Counted from the first letter of the stretch, positions 28,215 to 49,892 are shown. The stretch: 64,000 nucleotides of DNA from a bacterium (GCA_965207065.1 OZ242260.1:3712001-3776000), one strand, 5' to 3'. Numbers and translations are program-made. Notes: generated by a model from the sequence alone, not told the origin.

Positions 28215-28223
28215 GCCCCGCTC

Positions 28224-29372
28224 CTAGCCCAATGCCTGAAGTTTTACGCTCACGCTCATCCGGGTCCCGTCGCGCATCAGGTGCACTTCCACGACGTCGC
28301 CCACCTTGTGCTCATCTAGCGCGTCCAACAAATCATTGCGCGAGGTGACCGACTTCTCCCCCACCCCGACGATCACATCGCCGAGCACGAGGCTCCCCGC
28401 CCGGTTCCTCCCGGTGCCGCGCAGCCCGGCACCTTCAGCCGCGCTGCCTTTTTGTACGCGAATGATCAGCACGCCCCGTACGCCGAAGCGCTCCGCCGTC
28501 CCCCTGTCGGCCACGTGAATGCCGAGCCCTGGCCTGATAACGCGGCCATGGCGGAGCAACTGGGGAACGACCCTGTTCACCGTATCTACGGGAACCGCGA
28601 AGCCGATTCCTGCGTTGGAGCCGGAGGGACTGAAAATAGCGGTGTTGACGCCTATGAGGCGCCCGGCGCTGTCCAGAAGAGGCCCCCCCGAATTGCCCGG
28701 GTTGATCGCGGCGTCGGTCTGGATGACGCCGCTGATCTTGCGGCCCGACACGCCGTTGATCTCACGCCCCAGCGCGCTGATGATCCCCGTCGTGAGGGTC
28801 TGGTCCAACCCGAAGGGGTTGCCGATGGCGAACACCCTCTGGCCCACCAGCAGGTTGGAGGACTGCCCGACGGCGATCGGCTTGAGCCGGCTTTTGGGCG
28901 CATTGATGAAGAGGACCGCCAAATCCTGATCCGGCGCCATTCCCACCACGCGCGCGTCCCACTCGGTGTTATCCGCCAGGGTGATGCGAAGGGCGCTCGC
29001 TCCCTGAATGACGTGAAAGTTCGTGATGACGTGGCCCTGATCGTTCCAGACGAAGCCCGAACCCGTGCCCTGGGGAATCTCGAACAAATTGAGACTGAAC
29101 CTGTCGCGCCTCATCGCCAGCCTCGTGATATAGACCACCGACGGAGAAGAGAGGCGGAAAAGCTCTATGTTGGATTTCTCCTCGGCGGCGAGGTCTCCTC
29201 GCGGGGTAACGACGCGGGGCACGGCATCGGGGTCGTGGAAGTTATCGAAATATCCCCTTGCGAACATCCACGCGAGGGCGACGCCCAGCAAAAAAACACA
29301 CCAGACGAGCCATCGCCATCTGCTCGAATAGGTTACGCCTCCACCCCTGTGTTCACGACCTCCCCCGTTCAT
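28224..29372 (-). CDS. S1C (DegP/HtrA-like) serine protease with one PDZ domain
   Basis: GTGSGF, TNFHV, DLAVL, AINPGNSGGPL motifs; N-terminal TM; ATGA overlap with TetR gene. Confidence 0.94.
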   Translation of the reverse strand: MNGGGREHRGGGVTYSSRWRWLVWCVFLLGVALAWMFARGYFDNFHDPDAVPRVVTPRGDLAAEEKSNIELFRLSSPSVVYITRLAMRRDRFSLNLFEIPQGTGSGFVWNDQGHVITNFHVIQGASALRITLADNTEWDARVVGMAPDQDLAVLFINAPKSRLKPIAVGQSSNLLVGQRVFAIGNPFGLDQTLTTGIISALGREINGVSGRKISGVIQTDAAINPGNSGGPLLDSAGRLIGVNTAIFSPSGSNAGIGFAVPVDTVNRVVPQLLRHGRVIRPGLGIHVADRGTAERFGVRGVLIIRVQKGSAAEGAGLRGTGRNRAGSLVLGDVIVGVGEKSVTSRNDLLDALDEHKVGDVVEVHLMRDGTRMSVSVKLQALG

Positions 29373-30001
29373 TTCGACTCCTCTTTCTGCGCCCAAGGCA
29401 GGCTCATGACAGCACGCTCGCAGTCTTCGCGTAAAGACGCCTCATCCTGAGAACATCTCGCAATGATATGCGCACCCTGCATCTGGGAGAAGAAAGAACG
29501 CGCATATACAAGCGGTGCGATTTCTCCCGGAAGCTCTCCTTCCGCTTGAGACTGCGCCAATACGAGAGCGATTCTCTCAAATACGCCGTCCCAGACCTCT
29601 TTCAGCCGCATGCGCATCTCTTCATCAAGAGCACTCAGTTCGAGCGAGAGGTTCCCGATGGGGCATCCGCAGCACGGGGAATCCTGAATCGGCATGCGGG
29701 CGTAGGATTCCGCCAGACACCTGATTTTCTCGCGCCCACTCGCTTCTGTATCAAATGAGGGTGCGAGGTAGTTTTCGTGAAGTAGCGATTCGTAATGATC
29801 TATGATGGCGAGCCCCAAGTTTTTCTTGGAGCGAAAAAAATAGTACAGACTCCCCCGGTTCACTTTGGCGCCCTGCGCGACTATGTCCAGTGAGGTGGCG
29901 TGAAAGCCTCTCTGATAGACGAGCCGCGCGGCCGCTTCTATGATTTTGCGCTTCGTCCGGGAAGCCTTGGAACCTTTGGGCGTCGCCGTTGCTGCTTTCA
30001 T
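29369..30001 (-). CDS. TetR/AcrR family regulator (NemR-like C-terminus)
   Basis: GFHATSLD...RGSLYYFFRSK HTH; SPCCGCPIGNL. Confidence 0.93.
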   Translation of the reverse strand: MKAATATPKGSKASRTKRKIIEAAARLVYQRGFHATSLDIVAQGAKVNRGSLYYFFRSKKNLGLAIIDHYESLLHENYLAPSFDTEASGREKIRCLAESYARMPIQDSPCCGCPIGNLSLELSALDEEMRMRLKEVWDGVFERIALVLAQSQAEGELPGEIAPLVYARSFFSQMQGAHIIARCSQDEASLREDCERAVMSLPWAQKEESK

Positions 30002-30090
30002 GCGCTCTCACTCCGGTGAGTGAAATTTCGTCTTGCGGAAAAATGCTCCGCAATGGGCCACAAAGCGACCCACGAGAAAAATATAAAATT

Positions 30091-30114
30091 ATTTAGTTAG
30101 TTAGTCAACTAAAT
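30091..30114. promoter_or_regulatory. putative TetR operator palindrome
   Basis: ATTTAGTT-N8-AACTAAAT in an AT-rich stretch about 90 bp upstream of the TetR gene. Confidence 0.55.
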
Positions 30115-30149
30115 TTATGGCTGCTGCCACACCAATCCTGAAAGACATA

Positions 30150-31088
30150 TTACGCCGAGAGTTCTCGCAAGTGCGCTACGACGGAGCGCTCCAATGCGTC
30201 GAGATTGTACCCACCCTCGAGCAGACAGATGAGCCGCCCCTCGCAATGGCTTGCGGCAAGTTTCTTCACCCACCCGGTCAGGCGGGCGAAACCGGCTTCG
30301 GTGATCTTCAGCCCACCGAGCGGGTCGTCGCGGTGCGCGTCGAAACCCGCAGATACGACAACCGCTTCGGGACCATGCGCCTCGATGGCGGGGATGACGT
30401 TTTCCTCAAATTTCGCCAGATACGCCTCCTCAGAGGTTCCCGCAGCGACGGGAATGTTGAGCGTCTTGCCCTCCCCGGCTCCTTCTCCGGTTTCGTTCGC
30501 AAGGCCCGTGCCGGGATAGTGGGGATGCTGGTGCAGGGAGACGAAAAACACGTCCGGATCTTGCCAGAAGATATCCTGCGTGCCGTTGCCGTGATGCACG
30601 TCCCAATCCACCACGGCAATTTTCCGGAGGCCGTGTTGTTCCTGCAGATACCGCACCAGGATGGAGGCGGTGGCGAAGAGACAAAAACCCATCGACTGAA
30701 ACGGCAAGGCGTGGTGGCCCGGCGGCCTGGCGGCGCAAAAGGCGTTGTCCGCCTCACCACCAACTACGGCGTCCGCCGCACTCAGGGCCGCTTCCACGGA
30801 TGCGATCGCAGCCTCATAGCTTCCCGGACCAGCCTGCGTGTCTCCACCGTCCAGAATACACCTGCCGCTCGCACAAGCCTCGCGCACGAAGCGGTGGTGC
30901 TCTTTCTCATGCACCCGCAAAACCCACTCACTAGCGGCGTGGGGCTTACTCTCCATGTGTATGAGCGATGCGACTTGCGGGAGAATTCTCTCGGGCGCGA
31001 GACGCCTGGCGCGCTCTACGTTCTCCACATGCCGGCCGTTATCGTGCACGAGCGATTCGGGCGTCCAGAAATAAGCGGTTCTGCTCAA
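30150..31088 (-). CDS. histone deacetylase family protein
   Basis: RPPGHH, MGFCLF, DWDVHHGNGTQ, SAGFDAH..DPLG, LEGGY motifs. Confidence 0.96.
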   Translation of the reverse strand: MSRTAYFWTPESLVHDNGRHVENVERARRLAPERILPQVASLIHMESKPHAASEWVLRVHEKEHHRFVREACASGRCILDGGDTQAGPGSYEAAIASVEAALSAADAVVGGEADNAFCAARPPGHHALPFQSMGFCLFATASILVRYLQEQHGLRKIAVVDWDVHHGNGTQDIFWQDPDVFFVSLHQHPHYPGTGLANETGEGAGEGKTLNIPVAAGTSEEAYLAKFEENVIPAIEAHGPEAVVVSAGFDAHRDDPLGGLKITEAGFARLTGWVKKLAASHCEGRLICLLEGGYNLDALERSVVAHLRELSA

Positions 31089-32002
31089 TGGAGTCTCACC
31101 CTCGGGTCGAGGACGGAATACATCAAGTCAACAATAAGGTTCAAAGACACGAAAATCAGGGCGGTGATGGTCACAGAGGCCTGGACCAGGGGGAAATCCT
31201 TGGCGTAGACGGCCTGAATGAGAAGTCTCCCCACGCCCGGCCAGGAGAAAATCGTCTCGACGATTACCGCACCCCCCAGCAGATGCCCGAACTCCAGGCC
31301 GATTATCGTGATGACCGGGATCATTGAGTTTCTGAGCACGTGCAGGTTGATGACGATCCATTCGGAAAGCCCCTTCGCACGGGCGGTCTTCACGTATTCA
31401 TGCCGGAGCACTTCCAGCATGGAGCTTCGGACTACCCGAGTGTTTCTCGCGATCGAGTAAGTAGAGAGCGCGATGGCGGGCAATATCAAATGCTCCCAAC
31501 CGCTTCTACCGCTCACGGGCAGCCACCTCAGACTCACCCCGAAGATGAGGATCAGCATCAAGCCGAGCCAGAAAACGGGCATGGATTGCCCCAGTAACGC
31601 GAAAAGCATCCCCCCGTGATCATACGGTGAGCCGCGCTGCGTCGCGCTCACGACCCCTAACGGAAATGCCAGGATAATCGAGAGTACGAGCGCCACGAGG
31701 GCGAGTTCCAGTGTCGCGGGCAGGCGCTCCATGATGAGTTCGAACGCGGGCTGGCGGTAGCGCAGACTTTCGCCGAAGTCCCCCTGCACGGCCCTGCCCA
31801 CGTATCGCCCGTATTGCACGAACCAGGGCTTGTCCAGCCCCATATCTTGACGGAGTTGCTGGACCTCCTGAACCGTCCAGTCCTCGCCCACCATGGTGTC
31901 GGTCGGATCGCCAGACAGGAACAAGACGGCGAACGAGATGAAACTCACGCCGGCCACGACCACGATGGCCCGCAGGAATCGTCTGAAAAGATAGGCACCC
32001 AT
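31085..32002 (-). CDS. peptide/nickel ABC transporter permease (DppB-like)
   Basis: GDFGES, SMPVFWLG, TARAKGL, ETIFSWPGVG, DPR motifs. Confidence 0.95.
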   Translation of the reverse strand: MGAYLFRRFLRAIVVVAGVSFISFAVLFLSGDPTDTMVGEDWTVQEVQQLRQDMGLDKPWFVQYGRYVGRAVQGDFGESLRYRQPAFELIMERLPATLELALVALVLSIILAFPLGVVSATQRGSPYDHGGMLFALLGQSMPVFWLGLMLILIFGVSLRWLPVSGRSGWEHLILPAIALSTYSIARNTRVVRSSMLEVLRHEYVKTARAKGLSEWIVINLHVLRNSMIPVITIIGLEFGHLLGGAVIVETIFSWPGVGRLLIQAVYAKDFPLVQASVTITALIFVSLNLIVDLMYSVLDPRVRLH

Positions 32003-32003
32003 T

Positions 32004-33551
32004 TTATGGATTCACTTCTTTCAACCGAATCGTAGGCAGGTAGATTCTCTCATCCGGTCTCGGCGTCCACTGTGTCCTCGCGCTCAGACCGAAAAAATCA
32101 TACTGGTTCCAGAGAAACACCCATGGGCTATCCGCGCGAACAATGCGCTGCATCCGGTAGCTGATTCTTCTGCGCTCAGCGGGGTCGAACGTCTGACCGA
32201 GCTTCTTGTAGTTTCGAATGAACTCGCGGTTTCTCCAGGCGGTGAGGTTCGCGAACAGGTTGGGCCTCAACACGCCCAAATCGAGCTCTTCGTTGAAGGC
32301 GGAGCTGAACCCGTGAAAATACAAGGGCGCCAGCGTCTTTTTCCTTCTTCTCGCGAGGAAAACGGACCACTCCAGCGGAATCACCTCCACGTGGACGCCC
32401 ACGGTTCGGAAATAAGCAGCCAAAAATTCAGATATCTCCTTTCCTTTCAGATACCTGGATGCAGGAACTTCAAGTTGTATCTCAAATGGTTTTCCATTCA
32501 TTTCCAGCACGCCGTCCCCATTCGTGTCCTTAAGGCCGGCCTCGGCGAGGAGCGCCTTCGCCTTTCGGGGATCGTAGGCGTACGCCTTCATGTCCGGGGC
32601 GGCGTTCGGGGGGTTCACGATGCTCCGCATCCGCGAACCGTGACCCAGAAAAACGTTTTTTGCGATTGCCTCGAAATCAATCGCATGATTCAGCGCCCGG
32701 CGGATGCGTACATCGCCCAGCACCCCGTGATCCGTGCGAATCCCCAGGTAAATCCTGCGTCCTCCCCGAGTCCCTTTGAGCTGCAGACCTTCTCCTCTCG
32801 CCAGGATGGTTTTCGACTGATCGGGCGAGATGTTCATAATAATGTCGGCCCCGCCCGTCTCAAGTTCCGCTATCCGGGCCGATGCCTCGGCCACCGGCCT
32901 CCAGAACACTTTTTTTATCGCAGGCTTACCCCGCCACCAGCCCTTGTTGGCCGCCATCTCGATGCGGTCGTCCTTGATCCATTTCACCAGTTTGTAGGGC
33001 CCAGTTCCCACAGGTTTTTTCAACAATTCCTTGGGCGGAGTCGACGAATAATACCTGGGCGGCAGCATGAAAGCGTTGACCATCCAGACCGGCAGGGTGG
33101 CTACCGGACGCTTCGTGTGAATCTTCACGGTGTGGGAATCCACTTTTTCTATCCTGTCGAGGAATATCCGCCTGTACACCGTGATGCGCGGCTTCAGCTT
33201 CTTATCCCGCATCCGATCGAACGTATAGCGCACGGATTCTGCATCGAACGGCTCGCCGTTATGAAACTTCACACCCTTGCGGAGATGAAACGTCCAGACT
33301 TTTTTCGTCTCATCCACCTCCCAGCGCTCGGCCAGAGCGGGACCCAGCGTCATATCGCCGCGCCGCTCGATGAGCGGGTCGAACATGTTCATCAAGATGC
33401 TCCACTCGATGGTGGCGGTGGCGAAATGGGGGTCGAGCGTATTGGCCTCCACCGAGAGGATAACCGTGAAAGGCCCTTTTTTCGCTTCGCGGCCGCAGGC
33501 GGTGAGCGCCACGAGCAGCAGGCAAAATCCGCACAACAAGGCCCTTTTCAT
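32004..33551 (-). CDS. peptide ABC transporter substrate-binding lipoprotein (family 5)
   Basis: Lipobox LTAC; TLDPH, LRKGVKFHNG, GTGPY motifs. Confidence 0.94.
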   Translation of the reverse strand: MKRALLCGFCLLLVALTACGREAKKGPFTVILSVEANTLDPHFATATIEWSILMNMFDPLIERRGDMTLGPALAERWEVDETKKVWTFHLRKGVKFHNGEPFDAESVRYTFDRMRDKKLKPRITVYRRIFLDRIEKVDSHTVKIHTKRPVATLPVWMVNAFMLPPRYYSSTPPKELLKKPVGTGPYKLVKWIKDDRIEMAANKGWWRGKPAIKKVFWRPVAEASARIAELETGGADIIMNISPDQSKTILARGEGLQLKGTRGGRRIYLGIRTDHGVLGDVRIRRALNHAIDFEAIAKNVFLGHGSRMRSIVNPPNAAPDMKAYAYDPRKAKALLAEAGLKDTNGDGVLEMNGKPFEIQLEVPASRYLKGKEISEFLAAYFRTVGVHVEVIPLEWSVFLARRRKKTLAPLYFHGFSSAFNEELDLGVLRPNLFANLTAWRNREFIRNYKKLGQTFDPAERRRISYRMQRIVRADSPWVFLWNQYDFFGLSARTQWTPRPDERIYLPTIRLKEVNP

Positions 33552-33580
33552 GCGCAAATTTCCTTCAAAAAGCAAAACGA

Positions 33581-34513
33581 CTACATATCATCGCCGAGGC
33601 GGGGGTCCATGTAATCCCGCAGCCAGTCGCCGATGAGGTTGATGCTCAAAACCGTCGCCATGATGGCGAGACCCGGAAAAGTCGCCATCCACCACGCGCC
33701 TCTCAGATATTCGCGCCCTTCGGAGAGCATGCCCCCCCAGGTGACGACAGAAGGCGGAACGCCGAGCCCCAGGAAACTGAGCGAGGATTCGGAAATAATG
33801 TTTCCCGCCACGGCGAAGGTGGCGATGACGATGAGAGGCGAGAGGGTGTTGGGCAGAATCTGCATGAACAATATGCGGTATACGGGATAGCCCAGGGCGT
33901 GGGTGGCCTCCACGAATTCGCGCTCCCTTATCGAGATGACCTGGCCTCTCACCACGCGGCCATACGCCACCCACCGGCTGATCCCCAGTACGATGATGAT
34001 GTTGAACAGGCCCGGCCCGATGACCGCCATGATCGTGATCGCCAGCAAAATAAAGGGAAACGCCAGTTGAATCTCGGAAAACCCGCTGATGAGATCGTCT
34101 ATTTTCCCGCCGAAAAAGCCGGAAACAAGACCCAGAACGATGCCGATCACCCCCGAAATCACCACCGAACTCAAGCCCACCAGAATGGAGACGCGGCCCC
34201 CGTAAATGAGCCGGCTCAGAATATCCCGGCCCAGCGCGTCGGTTCCCAGCATATAGCTCGCGCTTCCTCCCTCCATCCAAACGGGAGGCTTCAGACGCAG
34301 GTTCACGTCCACCTTACTCGGGTTTTGCGGCGCGATGAGAGGAGCCGTAAGGGAAAAGACGACCAGCATAATGAGGAAAACGCCGCCGAGCATCGCCGGT
34401 TTGGATCGCATCATGCTCCGTCGGAATATCTCCCACCTGAGCTCCGATTCCGACATCATGGGGTATACATCCGATTCAAAAGCAGATTCGGACATTGTTC
34501 TATCTTCGGACAT
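33581..34513 (-). CDS. peptide/nickel ABC transporter permease (DppC-like)
   Basis: LGTDALGRDILSRLIYG, ESSLSFLGLG, WGGML, GDWLRD motifs. Confidence 0.95.
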   Translation of the reverse strand: MSEDRTMSESAFESDVYPMMSESELRWEIFRRSMMRSKPAMLGGVFLIMLVVFSLTAPLIAPQNPSKVDVNLRLKPPVWMEGGSASYMLGTDALGRDILSRLIYGGRVSILVGLSSVVISGVIGIVLGLVSGFFGGKIDDLISGFSEIQLAFPFILLAITIMAVIGPGLFNIIIVLGISRWVAYGRVVRGQVISIREREFVEATHALGYPVYRILFMQILPNTLSPLIVIATFAVAGNIISESSLSFLGLGVPPSVVTWGGMLSEGREYLRGAWWMATFPGLAIMATVLSINLIGDWLRDYMDPRLGDDM

Positions 34514-34665
34514 TCACCTGCTCTCGCGCCTCGGAGGCGGTAATTCGGGAGTTGATTCGCTTTGTATCCTAGCATAGCGCACTGTGAGTTGCAGAAAAAT
34601 TGTCAATACCGAAATGTCGAATTGTGTTGATATCCACAAGGCTATCGAATTAGAATCGCCTGTTT

Positions 34666-36159
34666 TTGAATTTTGGAGCCGCTTGGACAATTGTGAAGAT
34701 TCTCGGTGAAGGAATTCTCTCCTTGCCCTCCTACAATAAAGATAATTTCAATGAAGTGCTGATTTCCGCCGTTCCGGACGGATCGACGTTCGGTTTCCAG
34801 GGCCTGCGCGCAGTCGATTCGATCACCATGGAGAGCATCGTCCCCCTCGATTTCCTCATCGCCTGCGACTACGGACTCGACGGGCCTGAATGGGACAGGC
34901 GCCTGCGCTATTTCGCCGTGGAGCGCGGGCAAAACAAGCGCATCGTGTGGACGCACTCATCCCTCGTAGAAGCATACGAAGGAGCGTTGGGTTCGCAAAT
35001 TCGGAAATTTCTCTCAATTGGAGATGCTCCCCGGTACGTCATCCCCTACCGCTCCACGGAATTCCTCGGCAAACTCGCAGAAGAAGCCGATGGCAGGCTC
35101 CGCATCCTGGCGAATCCGGTGGAAATCAAGACGAGATTCGACGACAAAATTTCCTTCCGGCGCCGGGCCGTCGAAGCGGGGTTCGCCGTTCCACCGGGCG
35201 ACGTGGTGGCGTTGGGCGAACTTGGGCCCAATCAAATCGAGCAATTCGGGCCTGTCATGATCATTTCGGAGCAAATCGGCTCCTCAGGCAACCAGACGCA
35301 CCTCATCGACTCACCCGAGGCGCTCGCGAATAAACGCGATGAACTCATCGAAAAGCTGGGAGCCGATGCGCCGGTGATCGTCAGTACGTTTCTAAGCGGG
35401 CCCGCCGTCGGCACGGCGGGGCTGATTTATGGCGGCAAACCCTGGATGTCTCATCCTTCGGTGATGTTCACGGGCATCCCCGGCTGTTCAATGCACCGCT
35501 TCGATTACGCCGGAAGCGACTATGCGGCGTATCGGCTGGTTTCCGAAAAGAGCCGGCGAAAAATCGAGGAATTCACTCTGAAAATCGGAGAATGGATAGC
35601 CGAGGCGGGCTACCGGGGTATATACGGCGTCGATTTCATCGTCCATCAGGACGAACCCTACGCCCTCGAACTCAACCCTCGCGTGCTGGGAACCACGCAA
35701 CTGATGACCGAACTCGAGGAAAAACACAGCAGCGCACCCACCACCACCTACTGGCATCTGGCCGAATTCCTGAATCCGGACGCCGCTCTCGACGCGCATC
35801 AGGATCTGCTCGCCGAACTCAGCCGACCGGATTTATCCGGTTACCAGCTTTTGATTCGAAACACGAGGAGCTCGAAAATGAGAATCGGCCATTCGCTGGA
35901 GCCCGGCATCTACACCATCCAGAATGGGAGGCCTGAATTCATCCGGCGAGGCTTCCGCCTGAGCGACGTTCAAGGGCAGGATGAGGTGCTCGTCACTTGC
36001 TCTCCTCCGGCGAAAGGCACCATAGTAGAGCCGAGGGGAGCGTTCTGTAAGCTTGAGGGCGTCTCATCCATCTATGAAGGGGAAGAAGAGCAGATATCCT
36101 CCGCCGCCCGGGAAATGATAGATGTATTCACGCGCAGTCTCGCTCTTTCTCCCGCTTAG
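34666..36159 (+). CDS. ATP-grasp domain protein (putative amide/peptide ligase)
   Basis: FDDKISFR, GSSGNQT, GYRGIYGVDF, ELNPR motifs; true start may be TTG 34723 (AAGGA RBS). Confidence 0.82.
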   Translation: MNFGAAWTIVKILGEGILSLPSYNKDNFNEVLISAVPDGSTFGFQGLRAVDSITMESIVPLDFLIACDYGLDGPEWDRRLRYFAVERGQNKRIVWTHSSLVEAYEGALGSQIRKFLSIGDAPRYVIPYRSTEFLGKLAEEADGRLRILANPVEIKTRFDDKISFRRRAVEAGFAVPPGDVVALGELGPNQIEQFGPVMIISEQIGSSGNQTHLIDSPEALANKRDELIEKLGADAPVIVSTFLSGPAVGTAGLIYGGKPWMSHPSVMFTGIPGCSMHRFDYAGSDYAAYRLVSEKSRRKIEEFTLKIGEWIAEAGYRGIYGVDFIVHQDEPYALELNPRVLGTTQLMTELEEKHSSAPTTTYWHLAEFLNPDAALDAHQDLLAELSRPDLSGYQLLIRNTRSSKMRIGHSLEPGIYTIQNGRPEFIRRGFRLSDVQGQDEVLVTCSPPAKGTIVEPRGAFCKLEGVSSIYEGEEEQISSAAREMIDVFTRSLALSPA

Positions 36160-36172
36160 GACTTGGTGAAAA

Positions 36173-37342
36173 TTGAAACCAGATTTATTCGCATCCACCA
36201 CCCGAGGATTGTTTCTGTCGCCTGAAAGCCCATTTACGTTTGAGGGGGAATTCACACCCGACCCCAGGCCCGTTCCCTCAAACGGAATCGCGCTGGGCGA
36301 AGTCGTCGCGACGCCCAAGAACGCTCCCATCGATCGCCTGGAATCACTCGAAGTCCTCCGGGGAACGCAGGACGCCTGGAATACGAGCGAAATTAAATTG
36401 CGCGAAAAAATGAACGTGGCCGTTGCGATCGGCGGGCGCTATGCGAATCGCAGCATTTCGGGCCGAGAGCCGGACTCGCCCGCAGAGCCCGGAGCCGTAC
36501 TCGACCTGTTGAACGTCGGCGGCGTCTGCGGGATCCGCGCGAACCCCGAAACGCCGTGCGTCAAAATAGAGGTGAAAGGGGGCGTCTCGCTTCGAGGCGA
36601 ACCCGCTCAGCTTTCCCATCTCCCCGTCATCCCCGATACAAGGTGCCCCGTGGATGAAGAGGGAATTCCCTGCGCTCCCATCATCCTGGTGACCGGCTCC
36701 GAGATGGACGTGGGTAAAACGACATGCGCCTCTTCGCTCGCCTCCGCCCTTCACTCTTCGGGCATCCACGTCTCATACGTGAAACTCACCGGAACCGGCC
36801 GGATGCGGGATCTCATGCAGGTGAACTACGGAAGGCCGCTCGGGTTTTTCGACTCGGCGAGACTCGGCTGGGATTTCGTCGATGCGGGTCTTGCTTCCAC
36901 GTGCGGCGTCCCTGGACACAGGGTCAGGCGATGCGCCCAAAACCTGCTTCGCCACGCATGCGCGAAGGCGGAAATCGTAATTGCGGAACTGGCGGATTCT
37001 CCCTCATCGGACGCCAGCCTTCACGTAGCGAGCGACCCATGGGTCAGAGACTGGCTCGCGCGCAGGGGTCTGTTAATCTGCGCATGTGATACGCTGGAAT
37101 CAACACTCATCGTTCATTGGATTAGAAGCCACCTGGGGGTGGATGAGGAGAACATGCTGATTTCCGGAAGGCTCGCCAACGAAGCGCACGCGCGCGAGGA
37201 GGCGTACCGGATGACGGGGATACGCGCCTTGAGCTGCATCGCCCCGAACCCCACCTCCCTTGCAACCGACAATGCCGTGGGCGGCGCCATTGCGGACTGG
37301 GTGATCAAACACTTCATGCGTCAGCGCAAGTCGGTGTTCTAG
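36173..37342 (+). CDS. P-loop NTPase-like protein, DUF1611-related
   Basis: GSEMDVGKTT, KLTGTGRMRD, DFVDAGLAST motifs. Confidence 0.72.
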   Translation: MKPDLFASTTRGLFLSPESPFTFEGEFTPDPRPVPSNGIALGEVVATPKNAPIDRLESLEVLRGTQDAWNTSEIKLREKMNVAVAIGGRYANRSISGREPDSPAEPGAVLDLLNVGGVCGIRANPETPCVKIEVKGGVSLRGEPAQLSHLPVIPDTRCPVDEEGIPCAPIILVTGSEMDVGKTTCASSLASALHSSGIHVSYVKLTGTGRMRDLMQVNYGRPLGFFDSARLGWDFVDAGLASTCGVPGHRVRRCAQNLLRHACAKAEIVIAELADSPSSDASLHVASDPWVRDWLARRGLLICACDTLESTLIVHWIRSHLGVDEENMLISGRLANEAHAREEAYRMTGIRALSCIAPNPTSLATDNAVGGAIADWVIKHFMRQRKSVF

Positions 37343-37359
37343 GTCTCGAGAGCGAAACC

Positions 37360-38976
37360 TTGGCCTCACGTAAAACATTCAACCATCCCCGAATCGCACG
37401 TGAACCCTCTCTCTACCATCTCACGCCCGATGCAAGCGGCGGCGCCTGGGATCTGTACCGCGTGAGCCAGGAGTTCGATTCGATTGAAGGTGATCTGAAC
37501 GAAACGCTAATCGAAAGCCTCAACCACTGGGCGTCGCGCGAGCCCCGTTTCACAGACTTGCGCATTCTGGAAGACTCGCCACCCATTCAACGCCCGGGAG
37601 AAATCCTTTTGCTGGACGGCTCCCCGAGCCGACTGCCCCTCACCATGGAAACGGCGCGCGTAATGAGAGCGCACTTGAAGCAACTCGGGCTGTCCATCCC
37701 CGTCAGGGTACTGAACCGGCGCGAAGAACTTCTGGCGCGCGCCGCAAAGGCACCGAAAGAACTGCTCGTCATCAGTCAGACCGCCCAGAGAAGCCTCTAC
37801 GACGCGACCCTCGCCAAGGTTCTGGAGGAGCGGGGAATCGTCGTGGCGCCGGGGTCTCTCACCGCTCCCGGCGGGCCGCTCTCCAACAAGAAAACCACCT
37901 ATGAACTCCTGAATGGAAACGGCGAGAACGTCCAAAACCCGAAATCGGACGGGCATGGACATCGGCTGACAGCCCGCTATGAAGTGGTGGAATTAAACGG
38001 GGGAAGACCTGCGGACACCGCCGCCGCCATCCTGGATTCCGCCTCCGCCTTGTCGCAGAAATGGGGGGCGGGGACTTTCTTCGTCAAACCGCAAGAAGGC
38101 GGCGGGGGACGTGGATGTTTCCGGCTGGACGTCTACCCCAACGGGTTCGGGATGCCGGATTTAAGCAGGCTCGGCGTAGCGGCGGAACATGCGACACCCC
38201 TGCCCTTGTCCCTTGACGCGGAAAACCCCTATCACCTCCAGGCGATGGACTGGCTTGTTCAACGCTTCCAGGCCAGCCCTGCGACTTCGAGAGCCTATAT
38301 CAAGACCCAAAGGGTGGAAGGCGGCTCTTCACCGGACGTTTTGGGGGAAATGCTCAGGAACTGCGCGCCCAGACTCGAATCCGAACTGCGCGAAGCATCC
38401 CGCTCCCGGGAGGATTCGATTCGCCTCCTGGCGAGCGCCATCGAAAACTACGAGCAGGTATTCGACACGCGCTATCTGCCGCTGATATGCAACTGGATCG
38501 ATTTCGGCCTGTTCAGCATCCGCGTGCATCTGAGACTCAGCCGCGAGGGAATCGTTGTGGAAACGATCTACGCCCGGCTATTTCCGGTGGAATTCTCGGA
38601 TGATTCGGTCGGGGTCGTCGGCGTGGACAGCATTACGAACCGCACGGAGGGAGGCATGGAACTGAACCGCTATGCGCCATTGTTACCCCCTCTGGTCGCA
38701 TACGCGGGAGGCGCGGAGAGATTGTGCGAGAAGATTCGCGGCGCTTTTGACGCGTTCGCGCGCTTTTTGTCCCTCCTCGACCCCGGGGAGCGCGGCAGAG
38801 TGCCAGTTCGGGCCGAATTCGACCTATCGCCGCTCAACGGCCTGATCGCCGAGGGCAACGCCGACCCCGTCCGCGCCCAATGCGCCAACAGCCGCTGGGA
38901 AAGGTTCAGCGAAAACTGCGCGCAGTGGACGGATGACGCCTTGTCGTTCTACTCATGGAAATCTCAAAAAGTCTAA
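37360..38976 (+). CDS. divergent ATP-grasp-like protein
   Basis: SNKKTTYELL, FFVKPQEGGGGRG, EFD...EGN motifs; 538 aa. Confidence 0.68.
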   Translation: MASRKTFNHPRIAREPSLYHLTPDASGGAWDLYRVSQEFDSIEGDLNETLIESLNHWASREPRFTDLRILEDSPPIQRPGEILLLDGSPSRLPLTMETARVMRAHLKQLGLSIPVRVLNRREELLARAAKAPKELLVISQTAQRSLYDATLAKVLEERGIVVAPGSLTAPGGPLSNKKTTYELLNGNGENVQNPKSDGHGHRLTARYEVVELNGGRPADTAAAILDSASALSQKWGAGTFFVKPQEGGGGRGCFRLDVYPNGFGMPDLSRLGVAAEHATPLPLSLDAENPYHLQAMDWLVQRFQASPATSRAYIKTQRVEGGSSPDVLGEMLRNCAPRLESELREASRSREDSIRLLASAIENYEQVFDTRYLPLICNWIDFGLFSIRVHLRLSREGIVVETIYARLFPVEFSDDSVGVVGVDSITNRTEGGMELNRYAPLLPPLVAYAGGAERLCEKIRGAFDAFARFLSLLDPGERGRVPVRAEFDLSPLNGLIAEGNADPVRAQCANSRWERFSENCAQWTDDALSFYSWKSQKV

Positions 38977-39074
38977 GCTAGAATCAACCTGTTCAGCACA
39001 GCCTGCGTTCCGGAAATCCCAGAGGGCGGGATACACGCGAAGGACCCTCATCCACCGCTCTACAAGTGATTGAC

Positions 39075-42000
39075 ATGGCGAAACTCCTCAAAAAAGCCTT
39101 CAACATCCAGGAAGAGGAGTTGCTCGTCTTCTCGGTATTCTTTTTCTTCTACTTCCTGATCGGGGTCCAGTTCTCCATCGGGCTCACCGTATCCGAAGCC
39201 CTGTTCCTCTCGGAAGTCGGCCCGGGCTTTCTCCCCTATATGTATATATTCAACGCCCTGATGATCATCTTCATCAGCACTTTCTACTCCTCGCTCACAG
39301 AAAAACTCTCGATTCCGGCGATGTTCAAGACCGTCTTGATCTTTTTCATCGCGCTCGTCTTCGGCATCAAATTGCTTATATTCGCCGATTTCCGCGCCTA
39401 TGCGATGCCGATCGCGTTTCCGCTTCTCCACACGCTGTTCGTCATGTTCACGAACATGCTGCCGAACAATTTCCGTGCCCTTTACGGCCAGTACCTGGAC
39501 GTTTTGCAATCCAAGCGGCTCGTTCCGATCATCCTCACCGGGGGGCGCTACGGCGGTATAGTGGGCGGTCTGGCGATTCCGCTCCTGATCCCCGTACTTG
39601 GGAGCGTCTCGAACCTGCTCTATATATGGATCGGCGCCATCGTCGTCAGCATCGGGGTGGTGCAGTACGCAGAATGGCGGCTCAGAGACCATCTCATCGA
39701 AGACGCGGGCCCAAAAAAACGCAAAACGACGAAGAAGACGGCATCAAAAGGCGGCAATCTCGCACTGATGAAGTCGAACAAATATGTCTGCGCGTTCGCG
39801 CTTTTCAGCTTCATCGTTGTGATTCTCAGGAGTTTTCAGGATTTCCAGTACAGCCTCATCTTCCGCGAGGTTTATCCCGATCGCGCGCAACTCGCCTCGT
39901 TCCTCGGGTATTTCACCGCCATCGGGAGCGCCTTCTCGCTGCTCGTGCAGACGTTCATCACCCCGCGCATCATCAAGCGGCTCGGACTGGGAACGGCGAA
40001 CCTCCTCTACCCGCTCACGACCATCATCGGCCTTGCCGGCATGGCGATTTCGCCCGGTTTCTATTCCGCCGTCTTCCTGCGCTTCAACAACAAGAATCTC
40101 CAGGAATCGATTCGAAACGCCATCAACGCCCTGCTCTATAACGCCGTCTCCCCCTCGATCCGCGCGCGCGTGGGCGCGTTCGTCGCCGGCCAGGTGGTCG
40201 CCGTGGCCAGCATCGTCAGCGGCGTCACCCTGCTCATCATCAAACCCACCGGCCTCGCCCTATTCCCCCTGAGCGCAGGCCAATTGGCGCTCATCTCCCT
40301 GTTCATCGCGTTCGCCTATCTCGCCACAGGCTTCTTCGTGCGCCATGAATACGGCGCCGCGCTGCGCCGAATGCTCGAGGAGCGAAACCTGGGGCTGTTC
40401 CGCTACGCCCAGGAGGGATACGGCCCGGTTGACGATGAGAACATGGCGATACTCAGAAAAAACATCCGCGAGGGGGATGACGATCTTAGCGTCTTCACGG
40501 CACAGATGATGGCGGAAAGCGGCAGAAGCGAAACCAGTCAAATTATTCTCGAAGAAGTCCCCCGGCGGAAAGGACATGCGGCGGCCGAGTTGCTGAAAAT
40601 TCTCGCCAAGGCGCCCGGCGCCGAAGTGGGCGAGAAAATACGGCCCCTGCTGGAGGAATACCTCACTTGCGAGGAGCCCGTCCTGCAGTGCGCCGCCATG
40701 GATGCGGCCGAATCCATCGGACTGACGGAGGAAACGGCGGAACTGGTTCACGAGAACCTGGAGAGCGGCTCCCCCGAAGTCAGGGCGCGCGCCGTCGAGC
40801 TGCTTGTACGCTCCGATGACCTGTTCTGGCTCGCCAACGGCCTCCAAACGCTCCACCGGATGCTGAACGAAGAAGACGCGGCGGCCAGAGTCTGCGCCCT
40901 CAGGTGCATGGGAGAGCTCCAGAATCCGCGCTTCATCAAACGGTTGATTCCCTATCTCTACCAGAACGAGGAGAAAGTCCGCGAAGCCGCTTTGGAGGCG
41001 ATAGAAGTTCTGGCCATGAACCAGGGGGTCGATGAGGAGAGCATGGACGAAGTCATCCGGGTGACCACCTCGGATGAGAGTGCGGCCATCAGGCGAAGAG
41101 GCGTCCGGCAACTGGGCAACAAAGGCACGCGGGAGAATTTCGAACGCGCCCTGACCGCTCTTTCGGACGTCGATTCTCTGGTGAGGCGAGAGGCCGTCGA
41201 ATCGCTCAAGAACATGAAGCGAAAAGGAACCCTCTCTCTCGAAGGCTCCGGTCTTGTATCGTTCATCGCTCCGCTGTTGTTCAAAAGCGCGAAAAACGGC
41301 TCCCGCGAGATGAGCGAGCAGGAAATCGTGGACTCCCTCTCCGGGTTCGCAGTCGAACACCTGAAGGAGGTGTATGACGTCATCAATCACCTGCACGTCA
41401 TCGAACGCCGGGAAAACGTATCCGCCTTCACGATGTTAAGAAAAGCGCTCGAAGACGTCGTCGCGGAAAGACAACTCGTCCTGCTGGAATTGCTGGGGGT
41501 GATAGGGGACGAGAAAACGGTGGACACCGTGTCGGAGTCCCTCTCCCGGGGCGGCTCCTCATCGAGAGCGATCGCCATCGAGACGCTCTCGAACTTCTCC
41601 TCGACAGGAAATACGAGACTCCTGATTCTGGCCCTGGAGCCTCTGTTGCTCGGCAGATCGACCGCCGATAAGGTTTCCGAGGGCAGGAAACTATGGGAGA
41701 TACCCGAAAAATCGATCGATGAGGTTCTGACGACCTACATGGATTCCGAGAACGCGTGGCTGGAAGCCATCGCCGTGGATGCGGCGGGCAAACATCTTGC
41801 CGGCGAAGCGGATGGAGAAACCGCCTCGCGGCGCGCGCAGTTCAAGGAGCGGGCAACCGAGGGCGACCCGTACGTCCGTGAGGCCGCGGTTGCCGCTTTA
41901 AGAATAATCAAGAAAGATGAAGACGACGTTGTGTCGTTATTCAGAACCCTGGAAAATGACGAGAGTCAACAGGTTCGCCTTCAGGTACGCCGCGAACTCC

Positions 42001-42476
42001 TGCGTTATGAGGGAAGCGGCGAAAATCTATCCGAACAGGAGAAAATCATGCTCTCGACCATCGAAAAAGCCTTGTTCCTGAAAGGCGTCAACATGTTCGA
42101 GACGATGAGCGCGGATGAACTGAAAATACTGAGCAACATTTCCAGGGAAATTCAGATAGAGGCGGGAAAGGTTCTTTTCGAGCAGGGAGACCCCTGCGAT
42201 TACCTCTATGTCATCGTGGATGGGGAAATAGAGATCATCCTCAACCAGGAGAGCGGGGAACCCAGGATTCTCGCCACGCTCGCCCCCCCGAACTCGTTCG
42301 GTGAAATCGCGCTGTTTGGCGATGAGGGAAGAAGCGCAGGCGCGCGCGCGAGCCGGGACACCTCACTGCTGGGCATCGAAAAAGAACCTCTTCTCGAACT
42401 GATCCACGAGCACCCGACCATCTCCATCGCCATCATCGGCCAGCTCGCCGGCATCATCAGAAGCCAGAACGAATAG
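39075..42476 (+). CDS. Npt/TLC-like MFS transporter fused to HEAT repeats and a C-terminal cyclic-nucleotide-binding domain
   Basis: About 12 TM in the first ~430 aa (QSKRLVPII, RLGLG), HEAT-like VR..A repeats, FEQGD...FGEIAL..RSA cNMP motif. Confidence 0.88.
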   Translation: MAKLLKKAFNIQEEELLVFSVFFFFYFLIGVQFSIGLTVSEALFLSEVGPGFLPYMYIFNALMIIFISTFYSSLTEKLSIPAMFKTVLIFFIALVFGIKLLIFADFRAYAMPIAFPLLHTLFVMFTNMLPNNFRALYGQYLDVLQSKRLVPIILTGGRYGGIVGGLAIPLLIPVLGSVSNLLYIWIGAIVVSIGVVQYAEWRLRDHLIEDAGPKKRKTTKKTASKGGNLALMKSNKYVCAFALFSFIVVILRSFQDFQYSLIFREVYPDRAQLASFLGYFTAIGSAFSLLVQTFITPRIIKRLGLGTANLLYPLTTIIGLAGMAISPGFYSAVFLRFNNKNLQESIRNAINALLYNAVSPSIRARVGAFVAGQVVAVASIVSGVTLLIIKPTGLALFPLSAGQLALISLFIAFAYLATGFFVRHEYGAALRRMLEERNLGLFRYAQEGYGPVDDENMAILRKNIREGDDDLSVFTAQMMAESGRSETSQIILEEVPRRKGHAAAELLKILAKAPGAEVGEKIRPLLEEYLTCEEPVLQCAAMDAAESIGLTEETAELVHENLESGSPEVRARAVELLVRSDDLFWLANGLQTLHRMLNEEDAAARVCALRCMGELQNPRFIKRLIPYLYQNEEKVREAALEAIEVLAMNQGVDEESMDEVIRVTTSDESAAIRRRGVRQLGNKGTRENFERALTALSDVDSLVRREAVESLKNMKRKGTLSLEGSGLVSFIAPLLFKSAKNGSREMSEQEIVDSLSGFAVEHLKEVYDVINHLHVIERRENVSAFTMLRKALEDVVAERQLVLLELLGVIGDEKTVDTVSESLSRGGSSSRAIAIETLSNFSSTGNTRLLILALEPLLLGRSTADKVSEGRKLWEIPEKSIDEVLTTYMDSENAWLEAIAVDAAGKHLAGEADGETASRRAQFKERATEGDPYVREAAVAALRIIKKDEDDVVSLFRTLENDESQQVRLQVRRELLRYEGSGENLSEQEKIMLSTIEKALFLKGVNMFETMSADELKILSNISREIQIEAGKVLFEQGDPCDYLYVIVDGEIEIILNQESGEPRILATLAPPNSFGEIALFGDEGRSAGARASRDTSLLGIEKEPLLELIHEHPTISIAIIGQLAGIIRSQNE

Positions 42477-42601
42477 CTTGGGGCAAGACGACGCGCCGCA
42501 TGAGCGCCCGATGTCTTCATCGTGAACCACATCTTGTTTTCCGCATATTCTCCCCGTCTGGAGGCGGGTATACGTTGCATTGAAACTACCCCCTTTTAAG
42601 G

Positions 42602-42630
42602 TTGACGCCCGCCCTGCCCGTACCTATAAT
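42602..42630 (+). promoter_or_regulatory. sigma70 promoter of the octaheme cytochrome gene
   Basis: TTGACG-N17-TATAAT. Confidence 0.7.
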
Positions 42631-42698
42631 CAGCCGGATTTTAGCCAAGAAACCCGGAATTTCCGCTCAGAACGCCGGTGGGGGAGCGTTTTTTCAAG

Positions 42699-45626: not shown

Positions 45627-45648
45627 GTTTTAACATTCCACATAAAAC

Positions 45649-45675
45649 AAGCGCCTCGAACGGGGCGCTTTTTTT
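45649..45675 (+). terminator. Rho-independent terminator between convergent cytochrome c and nfi
   Basis: AAGCGCCTCG-AA-CGGGGCGCTT followed by a T-run. Confidence 0.8.
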
Positions 45676-46363: not shown

Positions 46364-46470
46364 GAATCCGCTATCGATCCTTGAAGGGGCGAGTGGCTAA
46401 CGGCGTCATTCGCCTCGGTGATGAGACGATGGGGATGCGCGCCATTACGCCGAGACGGCGGGAAAGAGAC

Positions 46471-49367: not shown

Positions 49368-49609
49368 AACCGCGCCTCTTTTCTGACTCGATTCAGAATG
49401 GGCGACCCGCCGGAAGAAATTACATCCCGGCGAAATCCTTTCGATTAAATAGATATATCCATTCCGCACGCCGGTTGTCAAGGCGTTCTGCAGGTGAAAT
49501 ACCTTCAAATTCAGGAGCGAAACTCTTGAATCTCTTGCCCTCGGCCCGGATTTGCGTCAGAATGCGGGCGTAACATTTTTATCACCAATTCGACTGAAAA
49601 GGATTCGAG

Positions 49610-49777
49610 ATGGAAAATTTCCTGCTCATTCTGACAAAACCCGACAACATCCCCATCGCGTTCATGATTCCCCTGGTTGGGTTTTTCGTCTGGCTGGCAA
49701 TCGCTCAGGGCCTCAGACACGACAAACTCATCAAAAAGGGGAAAAAAGACGACGTATACGACGAGATGATCCGATAA
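49610..49777 (+). CDS. small membrane protein (55 aa), probable detached N-terminal piece of the cytochrome b subunit IV-like protein
   Basis: Hand-translated MENFLLILTKPDNIPIAFMIPLVGFFVWLAIAQGLRHDKLIKKGKKDDVYDEMIR; AAAGGA RBS. Confidence 0.75.
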   Translation: MENFLLILTKPDNIPIAFMIPLVGFFVWLAIAQGLRHDKLIKKGKKDDVYDEMIR

Positions 49778-49892
49778 GCGCCTTGGGCTTCACTCACTCC
49801 CACATCAATACCTCCAGTGCATGGGACCTTGAATCCTTGATGGTCGGCCGCGGCTCGATGCCTTCGTTCTCACCCGTATTCTGGAGGCCGAC

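Follow-up and report, generated by a model that had tools for sequence, protein, structure and literature searches.

The locus described here raises the question of what is made by three closely spaced genes, two of which carry ATP-grasp signatures and flank a third with a P-loop. They lie in a 64,000-nucleotide stretch of DNA from an uncultured bacterium of Nitrospinota type (GCA_965207065.1 OZ242260.1:3712001-3776000), the whole of which is called the window below. An earlier note, made from the sequence alone, had proposed a ribosome-independent pathway that it could not match to any described one. We propose, at a probability of roughly 0.55, that the trio (G1, G2 and G3; Table 1) is one operon encoding an ATP-driven, ribosome-independent ligation module for a small peptide-like metabolite. 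The sequence and structure databases and the literature that were searched likewise yielded no characterised pathway matching the trio, and the pathway is most likely real and uncharacterised rather than a known one.

The three co-directional reading frames of the earlier note were recovered with their gaps of 13 bp (36160-36172) between G1 and G2 and 17 bp (37343-37359) between G2 and G3, as were the motifs quoted in it: FDDK (residues 158-161) and ELNPR (335-339) in G1, GSEMDVGKTT (175-184) in G2, and VKPQEGGGGRG (242-252) and EGN (498-500) in G3. Although the frame of G1 is indeed present from position 34666, this is merely its longest possible start; translation more probably begins at 34723, in view of a conserved GAAGGA with a TTG at this position and of the many homologues that are likewise 478 aa long. 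Each trio gene has 50-60 homologues at an identity of at least ~37%, and the three families are near-identical both in size (54, about 57 and about 53 cluster representatives) and in taxonomic range. In three pairwise comparisons for each gene, third-position differences (0.35-0.65 per codon) exceeded those at first and second positions (0.11-0.40). Because of these homologues and this codon pattern, the trio genes are, as judged by comparison of sequences, real genes under purifying selection and not chance reading frames.

Table 1. Positions of the trio and of neighbouring features in the window
Feature	Position	Strand	Basis
G1, ATP-grasp ligase, 478 aa from TTG 34723 (longest ORF 34666-36159, 497 aa)	34723..36159	+	Pfam, PDB profile
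G2, two-domain enzyme, 389 aa	36173..37342	+	AF2 model, Foldseek, profile match to BioD
G3, predicted ATP-grasp ligase, sequence orphan, 538 aa	37360..38976	+	AF2 fold and conserved catalytic motifs
Sigma-70-like promoter of trio, TTGATA-18 nt-TAGAAT	34627..34656	+	Consensus scan and intergenic conservation
Conserved ATCCTAGCATAG box	34566..34577	-	Best-conserved block of intergenic alignment
Divergent operon, possibly linked	30150..34513	-	Pfam
OppC-like permease	33581-34513	-	Pfam
Family-5 solute-binding protein	32004-33575	-	Pfam
OppB-like permease	31085-32002	-	Pfam
HDAC-family deacetylase	30150-31088	-	Pfam, 7e-90
TetR-family regulator, 3' of deacetylase	29369..30001	-	Pfam TetR_N, TetR_C_13
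HEAT-repeat protein, 1136 aa, C-terminal cyclic-nucleotide-binding domain	39066..42476	+	Pfam
Ddl of the window	57786-58880		Sequence match, 2.1e-64

The tight co-directional spacing behind a single conserved promoter argues for the proposed module. The -10 box of this promoter (TAGAAT, 34651-34656) is conserved and lies just 5' of 34666, and the TTAGAATC box persists across 18 aligned intergenic sequences, some of them from loci with only ~50% protein identity. Read on the minus strand, the ATCCTAGCATAG box gives TGCTAGGAT, an extended -10-like element and candidate promoter for the divergent transporter/deacetylase operon. A candidate regulator of this divergon is the TetR protein, which was found in 22 of the 31 loci, in L020 as no more than a 40-residue remnant. 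On the other side, the HEAT-repeat gene follows G3 in 28 of the 31 loci and has a promoter-like site of its own in the promoter scan (38956-38984); its product is a conserved neighbour and a putative member of the pathway.

G1 is, by profile comparison, a member of the ATP-grasp superfamily. It matches Pfam PF02655 (ATP-grasp_3) over residues 160-343 (1.6e-6; 28.8 bits, cut-off 23.2), and the profile of its family finds carbamoyl-phosphate synthetase (1.3e-9) and the BC domain of pyruvate carboxylase (8.7e-9) in the PDB. Among 19 sequences, S206, S207 and G208 of the Gly-rich loop GSSGN and N337, P338 and R339 of ELNPR, which holds the E-x-N motif, are invariant, while G205, N209 and E335 are kept in at least 90%; these residues probably have catalytic (Mg/ATP) roles. 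In the alignment, the strand preceding the Gly-rich loop carries no Lys, so that the ATP site may be atypical. All NCBIfam scores of G1 are far below cut-off, the best being that to PRK06524 (62 bits versus 684). Identities of G1 or G3 as the housekeeping ligases Ddl, RimK, GshB, PurD or CphA were rejected on NCBIfam matches far below cut-off, which agrees with the earlier note, and the true Ddl of the window lies elsewhere (Table 1).

G3, in turn, had no match in Pfam, NCBIfam or the PDB by sequence; none of 16 family members matched ATP-grasp sequence models at E<=1, and the family profile matched no ATP-grasp chain in the PDB. Its AF2 model (pLDDT 85.6, pTM 0.88), however, gave 344 PDB matches at E<=0.001 in Foldseek, with a Foldseek probability of 1.00 for the ATP-grasp fold; those listed are all ATP-grasp proteins (Ddl, DcsG, PurK, PurT, LysX/ArgX, Pby1), with E-values of 3e-7 to 8e-6 and target-normalised TM scores of 0.45-0.67 for Ddl, DcsG, PurK, LysX/ArgX and PurT. 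In the model, strand 239-244 ends in K243 and is followed by the loop GGGGRG and strand 254-259, D488 lies on strand 484-489, and E498 and N500 lie on strand 496-500. Fourteen of 16 family members retain K243, GGGGxG, R484, D488, E498 and N500; in the other two (P0252 and P0259) they are degenerate. G3 thus has an ATP-grasp fold by predicted structure and conserved catalytic motifs only. The claim of two ATP-grasp enzymes therefore holds, for G1 by Pfam and for G3 by predicted fold and motifs.

G2 consists of an all-beta N-domain (residues 1-165), with invariant Gly loops (GGR/LLN-GG-G), and a P-loop domain (166-389) that is, by modelled fold and motifs, a SIMIBI enzyme of the dethiobiotin-synthetase/CTP-synthase type. 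Foldseek places the AF2 model (pLDDT 91.7) with CTP synthase, HypB and BioD (E 1e-6 to 1e-4), and the G2 profile matches BioD at 1.3e-5. The HMM alignment with BioD of M. tuberculosis spans the P-loop and K204, the aligned counterpart of the Lys that BioD conserves after the second strand; GxxMxxGKxT, K204-x-TG-x-GR, DF-x-D-x-G and E272 are invariant in the C-domain. G2 is not BioD proper, as TIGR00347 reaches only 23.1 bits against a cut-off of 83.3, over residues 172-211. Nor could the label 'DUF1611-like' be kept as a family assignment: a weak P-loop similarity is there, but PF07755 scores 16.9 bits against 25 and covers only profile positions 12-55 of 201, homologues of G2 on plasmids score below cut-off as well, and an N-terminal model of the DUF1611_N type matched neither G2, nor its family, nor these plasmid homologues in our scans. 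The N-domain of Pfam DUF1611 is Rossmann-like, that of G2 all-beta. DgcN, to our knowledge the sole DUF1611 protein studied, N-acetylates D-Glu; the analogy with it is a lead and not a family membership, since the nearest folds to that of G2 are those of dethiobiotin synthetase and the CTP synthase synthetase domain.

The three genes are inherited together. Of the 31 related loci, 30 have G2 directly 5' of G3 and 29 contain G1 (the two misses are contig ends), and the arrangement is kept down to 48-56% identity. The exception is the out-group locus L031 (33% identity), where a G1-like and a G3-like gene are adjacent, G2 is missing and the neighbourhood is otherwise different. This conservation weighs less than 30 counts would, as the 30 loci from Nitrospinota/Tectomicrobia share ~20 kb of synteny (Cu-ATPase to EndoV) and are not independent observations. 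Homologues of G2 also occur on plasmids of Bacillus paranthracis (NZ_CP116206.1) and Priestia megaterium (NZ_CP085446.1), matching over both domains (hhalign probability 99.5, E 1e-22). Each lies directly 5' of an ATP-grasp gene, and the cluster, a biosynthetic one of phosphonate type with PEP mutase and TPP decarboxylase, contains another such gene; neither G1 nor G3 has a detectable relationship to these partners. A triad of a G2-like and two ATP-grasp genes, by this comparison, recurs independently in Bacillota. None of the outcomes that the earlier note had named as speaking against its reading (close hits to a characterised pathway, no conserved co-occurrence, a third protein lacking the ATP-grasp fold) was found.

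It might be proposed that G1 and G3 would each convert a carboxylate into its acyl-phosphate and then couple this to an amine. Enzymes of the dethiobiotin-synthetase/CTP-synthase type put a phosphate on a carbonyl or carboxyl oxygen to allow attack by nitrogen; because of this chemistry, G2 would supply a third ATP-dependent step, for example an amidation, a ring closure or a further amide bond. The two ligation steps that the earlier note proposed would lead to a small peptide, and with G2 the ATP-dependent steps may number three. We infer these chemistries, their order, the substrates and the product, which would be a small peptide-like metabolite that consists of two or three building blocks and is restricted to the Nitrospinota/Tectomicrobia lineage. 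The intact P-loop and the fold of G2, as well as the independent Bacillota triads, favour this reading; the absence of G2 from L031, the strand without Lys before the Gly-rich loop of G1 and the lack of a detectable relationship between G1 or G3 and the Bacillota partners speak against it. No obvious gene for the supply of building blocks was seen near the trio.

The divergent operon suggests a different role, namely that the trio converts an imported compound in salvage or catabolism and makes no product de novo. The importer would take up an N-acylated peptide- or polyamine-like compound, the HDAC-type enzyme would deacylate it, and the trio would re-ligate, carboxylate or otherwise convert it. 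The earlier note had suggested a link to the importer and deacetylase, and these do adjoin the trio in 26 of the 28 loci with enough upstream sequence (26 of 31 overall, three loci being cut off), with divergent promoters in a common, conserved intergenic region of 209 bp. This adjacency, however, falls within the shared synteny, and the block is absent from L031 and from L022, which has a methyltransferase instead; Pfam found no ATPase gene in the importer operon. Carboxylating enzymes are the nearest solved relatives of G1, and remote G1 relatives ('biotin carboxylase') on alphaproteobacterial plasmids (Roseobacter, Rhizobium) likewise have a family-5 binding-protein (peptide-type) ABC importer beside them, along with an amidase or C-N hydrolase and a C45 peptidase; the catabolic look of these clusters also counts against biosynthetic ligation. 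These relatives are merely 22-25% identical to G1, though, and the Bacillota triads stand in biosynthetic-type clusters, and we regard a salvage role as unlikely. Quite unlikely is an N-acetyl-peptide cycle in which G2 would be DgcN-like and transfer acyl or acetyl groups, the trio would make an osmolyte-like N-acetylated di- or tripeptide, the importer would recover it and the HDAC-type enzyme, encoded in the divergent operon, would deacetylate it. Weak DUF1611_C matches in 26 of 27 G2-family members are consistent with it, although the best (24.6 bits) is below the cut-off of 25 and that of G2 covers ~45 of 201 positions, beside an all-beta N-domain; PGAP labels three of four compared plasmid homologues (Bacillus, Paracoccus, Sulfitobacter) as 'DUF1611 domain-containing protein'. 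In PMC12363236 and PMC10845958, dgcN is presented as the key gene of a pathway for D-Glu conversion. The fold and conserved Lys of G2 indicate phosphoryl chemistry instead, and the best matches of the transporter are of nickel, opine and glutathione type and not of acetyl-peptide type.

It is these transporter matches (Opp2B/NikB, NikA, staphylopine CntA/CntC, glutathione GsiB/C/D in NCBIfam) that would fit a metal-chelator system, in which a Nik/Cnt/Gsi-like importer recovers the metal complex of a small metal-binding peptide with a glutathione-, phytochelatin- or opine-like role. A heavy-metal P-type ATPase lies within the conserved block and a LarC nickel-insertion gene adjoins the G1/G3-like pair of L031, but both adjacencies are possibly coincidental. 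Every transporter match, Opp4C included, is below its curated cut-off, even that to Opp2B/NikB (3.9e-103; 344.8 bits versus 350), an Rfam search matched no metal riboswitch, the regulator is of TetR type with no metal-responsive one found, and chelator-type chemistry is not readable from the trio enzymes; we consider such a system improbable. Modification of a ribosomal peptide or carrier protein, in the manner of graspetides/microviridins, RimK or LysX, seems very improbable. LysX/ArgX and the tubulin-tyrosine-ligase-like domain of Pby1 are among the structural neighbours of G3, its modelled long helical insert (about 290-368) and helical N-terminal region could bind a macromolecule, and microviridin clusters pair two ATP-grasp ligases. 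The best fold matches of G3 are, however, small-molecule ligases, the Bacillota counterparts lie in small-molecule clusters, and no conserved precursor-peptide gene stands beside the trio: the short reading frames within 34514-34722 and 38977-39065 show no conservation, and the upstream alignment conserves promoter boxes alone.

Compared with known systems, the trio lacks the adjacent conserved precursor gene of graspetide/microviridin-type systems, and neither a biotin carrier nor a carboxyltransferase is encoded nearby. G1 resembles the ATP-grasp_3-type amino-acid/amine ligases BesA, MfnD and LdmS by weak NCBIfam matches and the carbamoyl-phosphate-synthetase/biotin-carboxylase branch by profile, but has N- and C-terminal regions of its own (~140 and ~150 aa). 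G3 shares with Ddl, DcsG, PurK and LysX a superposable fold, the Lys and Gly-rich loop and the D/E/N residues on the last strands, yet at 8-14% identity no sequence method links them, and its insert and N-terminal extension make it ~230 residues longer. With BioD and the CTP synthase synthetase domain, G2 has in common the C-domain fold, the GxxxxxGKT P-loop and the Lys after the second strand, whereas its N-domain is additional and a biotin or pyrimidine context is absent; to DUF1611/DgcN it is tied by weak P-loop similarity and the annotation of its homologues. The Bacillota phosphonate-type clusters, for which no characterisation was found in the literature searched, alone have a carbamoyltransferase-like gene and MFS exporters besides PEP mutase and TPP decarboxylase, and no orthologue of G1 or G3 is among their ATP-grasp genes; what they share with the trio is a G2 homologue that immediately precedes one ATP-grasp gene, and the presence of another in the cluster.

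The three plus-strand open reading frames described in the earlier note, G1 and G3 encoding ATP-grasp proteins and G2 a P-loop protein, are all found in the sequence with the gaps (13 bp between G1 and G2, 17 bp between G2 and G3) and motifs quoted there. For each gene, 50 to 60 homologues were recovered at the cluster level, and in codon alignments against three loci of falling identity the changes at third positions (0.35-0.65 per codon) clearly exceed those at first and second positions (0.11-0.40 per codon), indicating that G1, G2 and G3 are expressed and constrained genes. All three longest reading frames begin with TTG (34666, 36173 and 37360) and not with ATG or GTG, as does the shorter version of G1 at 34723, and the homologues start at equivalent positions. 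A conserved -10 box upstream of G1 has its last base at 34656; because a conserved GAAGGA with TTG is located at 34723 and many G1 homologues are 478 aa long, the latter position is likely the true start. Going by the names of the closest homologues, the window belongs to a MAG lineage of the Nitrospinae/Nitrospinota; some relatives bear the label Tectomicrobia.

Positions of the trio and of related genes and clusters in the window and at other loci
Feature	Location	Strand	Basis or remark
G1	34666-36159	+	longest ORF, 497 aa
G2	36173-37342	+	ORF, 389 aa
G3	37360-38976	+	ORF, 538 aa
Canonical D-Ala-D-Ala ligase	57786-58880	+	Dala_Dala_lig_C, 2.1e-64
G2-like protein, B. paranthracis	L034 5944-6972		hhalign
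G2-like protein, P. megaterium	L037 5782-6843		hhalign
G2-like protein, Paracoccus albus	L035 5791-6843		hhalign
Bacillota phosphonate-type clusters	L034 1-8140; L037 2613-11301		uncharacterised as far as searched
G1-like/G3-like pair adjoining LarC nickel-insertion gene	L031 253-1509	-	LarC, 6.4e-79
Conserved cluster on Roseobacter and Rhizobium plasmids of PRK06524-like 'biotin carboxylase' ATP-grasp, ~900-aa PLP enzyme, C45 peptidase and family-5 ABC importer	L032 2812-14969; L033 2943-14897		

Scanned once with the G3 profile, the species-representative genomes yielded 31 loci, whose gene content was determined by tblastn with the proteins of the window. The co-occurrence in other genomes for which the earlier note proposed a search is seen: in 30 of the 31 loci G2 lies directly upstream of G3, and in 28 G1 precedes G2; G1 is present in 29 in all, the two others beginning inside G2, and the order G1-G2-G3 holds down to 48-56% identity. 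The loci other than L031 share synteny from a Cu-type P-type ATPase to endonuclease V, and these 30 therefore do not represent independent observations. L031, from a MAG labelled 'uncultured archaeon', is the one real out-group (33% identity). Here, a G1-like gene (ATP-grasp_3, 4.4e-7) immediately precedes the G3-like gene, and the locus has neither G2 nor the importer nor the deacetylase; the ORF following the G3-like gene shows no detectable relation to the G2 profile in hhalign. As L031 retains G1-like and G3-like genes without G2, the core that is conserved is the G1-G3 pair, G2 having been added in the Nitrospinota/Tectomicrobia lineage.

The G3 protein has no sequence match in Pfam, NCBIfam or the PDB, its family profile similarly none in the PDB, and none of 16 family members matches the ATP-grasp models of Pfam at E<=1. 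Among 1.84 billion representatives the profile identified 43 proteins at E<=0.001, about 13 of them full-length; thus, the family is very small. Two profile matches are repeat proteins whose resemblance may be compositional: in P0266 (1355 aa) profile positions 439-487 are matched in 17 separate stretches, in P0277 (2136 aa) positions 244-267 in 7. Structural modeling by AlphaFold from a 25-sequence alignment (pLDDT 85.6, pTM 0.88) gave 344 Foldseek matches in the PDB at E<=0.001, the matches listed being ATP-grasp enzymes, so that the model bears out the fold proposed in the earlier note for this gene. The best of those listed are D-Ala-D-Ala ligases (best 2.7e-7, TM normalised to the target 0.61-0.67), further ones DcsG, PurK, PurT, LysX/ArgX and Pby1. 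In the model, K243 is located at a strand end, GGGGRG forms the next loop, and D488 and E498/N500 lie on the last two strands; these catalytic-type residues are kept in 14 of the 16 members, including relatives at 24-35% identity, and are lost in the two outliers P0252 and P0259. Judged by its predicted structure, G3 represents a new family inside the known ATP-grasp superfamily. Its look-alikes in the ESM Atlas are 'ATP-grasp-like', and tblastn of G3 against plasmids gave no match. A second Ddl was rejected as the identity of G3, since a true Ddl is present in the window and the identity is 12-14%; in hhalign, the Ddl of the window shows no detectable relation to the G3 profile. The presence of this canonical enzyme also implies that the ligases of the trio are not the housekeeping enzyme, in agreement with the earlier view that neither is housekeeping-like.

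G1 passes the Pfam model ATP-grasp_3 (28.8 bits, cut-off 23.2). Its best NCBIfam match, PRK06524 'biotin carboxylase', is far sub-threshold (62 bits vs 684), as are, below it, BesA, MfnD, LdmS, Ddl and CPS. A profile built from 19 family members retrieved from the PDB the large chain of carbamoyl-phosphate synthetase (1.3e-9) and pyruvate carboxylase/biotin carboxylase domains (8.7e-9 to 1e-4), and showed no detectable relation to the G3 profile in hhalign. Among the residues invariant in the 19 members are the SSG core of the GSSGN loop, the NPR of ELNPR, and K155 and K161. The strand ahead of the Gly-rich loop reads without Lys, and it is therefore with caution that the ATP site of G1 should be regarded as typical. 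Remote relatives annotated 'biotin carboxylase' (22-25% identity) occur on Roseobacter and Rhizobium plasmids, where their neighbours are a large PLP enzyme, a C45 peptidase, an amidase or C-N hydrolase, and a family-5 ABC importer.

Sequence methods reach only the P-loop stretch of G2 (168-226), with AAA_26, DUF1611_C, CbiA and BioD all below cut-off. The earlier designation 'DUF1611-like' holds in part: a weak DUF1611_C match is found in 26 of 27 family members (best 2e-5), yet none reaches the gathering score. The ESM Atlas look-alikes are likewise 'hypothetical/DUF1611-like'. G2 is a member of an uncharacterised family only loosely attached to DUF1611. In its model (pLDDT 91.7), an all-beta N-domain (about 1-165) precedes a P-loop domain of the alpha/beta type, and its best Foldseek matches are the synthetase domain of CTP synthase, ATPase-type HypB and dethiobiotin synthetase (E 1e-6 to 1e-4). 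GxxMxxGKxT, K204-x-TG-x-GR, DF-x-D-x-G and E272 are invariant in the family, K204 aligning with the conserved Lys of BioD. Gly-rich loops are strongly conserved in the N-domain as well, namely GGR (G87 and R89 at least 90% conserved) and LLN-GG-G (L113, G117 and G120 invariant, N114 and G116 at least 90%). An assignment as BioD was rejected, the score being far below cut-off and a biotin context absent. The predicted G3-G2 complex (score 0.00, mark 0.32) speaks neither for nor against a contact.

Searching plasmids with G2 by tblastn returned eight records, of which those of Bacillus, Priestia, Paracoccus, Sulfitobacter and Microvirga are covered here. The G2 profile matches three annotated plasmid proteins, those of B. 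paranthracis, P. megaterium and Paracoccus albus, over both domains (hhalign probability 99.5, E 1e-22 to 3e-23); these, too, fall below the Pfam cut-off for DUF1611. Immediately downstream of the G2-like gene, each of the two Bacillota plasmids carries an ATP-grasp gene; in Priestia it bears this annotation, in Bacillus it is recognized by sub-threshold ATP-grasp matches, and the two genes are 25% identical (E 5e-14). The Bacillus gene has no detectable relation to the G3 and G1 profiles in hhalign. A further ATP-grasp gene, which in Bacillus has an L-amino-acid-ligase C-domain, belongs to each of the two clusters, as do PEP mutase, a split TPP decarboxylase, a carbamoyltransferase-like gene and exporters. 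On the basis of these two plasmids, the three-part composition recurs independently in biosynthetic-type clusters of an unrelated phylum. The gene after the G2-like one on the Paracoccus and Sulfitobacter plasmids encodes an exporter-type ABC ATPase, and a Microvirga plasmid match to G2 falls under a 'transposase' annotation.

The 209-bp region between the trio and the divergent operon holds two conserved boxes, TTAGAATC, the -10 of TTGATA-18-TAGAAT on the plus strand, and ATCCTAGCATAG, which on the minus strand reads TGCTAGGAT; a scan of 28000-46500 against Rfam at E<=1 gave no family. The divergent operon, of the composition OppC-like permease, binding protein, OppB-like permease and deacetylase, adjoins the trio in 26 loci, three loci end too early, and L022 has a SAM-methyltransferase gene in its place. 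In the window (30150-34513, minus strand), its genes for a peptide/nickel-type ABC importer encode a binding protein and two permeases, an ATPase gene being absent; the sole other ABC ATPase noted in the window (7047-8045) is part of a branched-chain-type system. A 363-aa ORF at 30117-31208 (plus strand), which has no family match, was rejected as a gene, being an antisense shadow of the deacetylase gene (30150-31088, minus strand). Downstream of the trio, 39066-45626 (plus strand) encodes a 1136-aa HEAT-repeat protein with a C-terminal cyclic-nucleotide-binding domain and then a 982-aa multihaem cytochrome c; the former gene lies 3' of G3 in 28 of the 31 loci, and the cytochrome is next wherever the contig extends that far. 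At about 49500-56000, where GC drops to 0.51 (50-52 kb), an Mrr-type restriction endonuclease domain, a DUF4365 protein, a HepT-like ribonuclease and several family-less ORFs may form a defence or mobile island.

For the trio, the operon structure, the co-inheritance, the motifs and the folds are shown by the above analysis. As to its chemistry, substrates, order of steps and product, we infer, with a probability of about 0.55, an ATP-driven, non-ribosomal ligation module making a small peptide-like metabolite, in which G1 and G3 would be carboxylate-amine ligases and G2 a DTBS/CTPS-type activating enzyme. In the P-loop branch of BioD, CTP synthase and CobB/CobQ, a carbonyl or carboxyl oxygen is phosphorylated, which drives C-N bond formation; by this analogy, G2 would perform a third ATP-dependent step of the ligation or cyclisation type rather than being a mere accessory NTPase.

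It appears unlikely that the trio is instead a salvage or processing module coupled to the divergent importer, a reading which finds its main support in the plasmid clusters of the remote G1 relatives with their family-5 ABC importer, C45 peptidase, and amidase or C-N hydrolase. The deacetylase is a class-II-like HDAC-family enzyme (best solved relatives: HDAC6 catalytic domains, 5ji5 and bacterial HDAH). We give little weight to an N-acetyl-peptide cycle with G2 acting like DgcN. Passages of two reports name dgcN as the key gene in a D-Glu conversion route (PMC12363236, PMC10845958); as G2 fails the defining Pfam features of DUF1611, the analogy stays a lead only. In NCBIfam, the importer comes closest to nickel (Opp2B/NikB 3.9e-103, NikA), oligopeptide (Opp4C), glutathione (Gsi) and staphylopine (Cnt) systems, with every score below cut-off. 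A metal-chelator system is given still less weight. Least probable is a modification of proteins or RiPPs by the trio, against which it speaks that no conserved precursor ORF adjoins it.

Beyond the preferred reading of a ligation module, it might tentatively be speculated that an unrecognised, recurring ATP-grasp/G2-type/ATP-grasp module exists in Nitrospinota/Tectomicrobia chromosomes and Bacillota phosphonate-type clusters, that the G2 proteins, which combine a beta-domain with a DTBS-like P-loop and at present bear a wrong DUF1611 label, constitute a new ATP-dependent C-N bond-forming class, that G3 founds a new ATP-grasp family, and that the Nitrospinota product is a new lineage-specific peptide-like metabolite recovered via the divergent importer and deacetylase. 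If true, a new small-molecule pathway would be defined by the operon, in uncultured relatives of the main marine nitrite oxidisers, the ATP-grasp superfamily would gain a sequence-orphan family, and a first functional handle would be provided on widespread 'hypothetical/DUF1611' proteins of natural-product clusters. Possible roles for the compound are those of an osmolyte, a metal carrier, or a signalling or defence molecule; knowing which of them applies would help to explain the physiology of these organisms and might yield new ligases for biocatalysis. The trio is a solid, experimentally tractable lead, worth more if the G2/ATP-grasp module proves general.

Within the databases and literature searched, no characterised pathway, curated family or paper matches the trio, in line with the earlier note, which could match it to no pathway described before. 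The building of a small amide-linked product by ATP-grasp ligases is a known logic, and the phosphonate-type clusters on the two Bacillota plasmids likewise combine two ATP-grasp genes with a G2-like gene.
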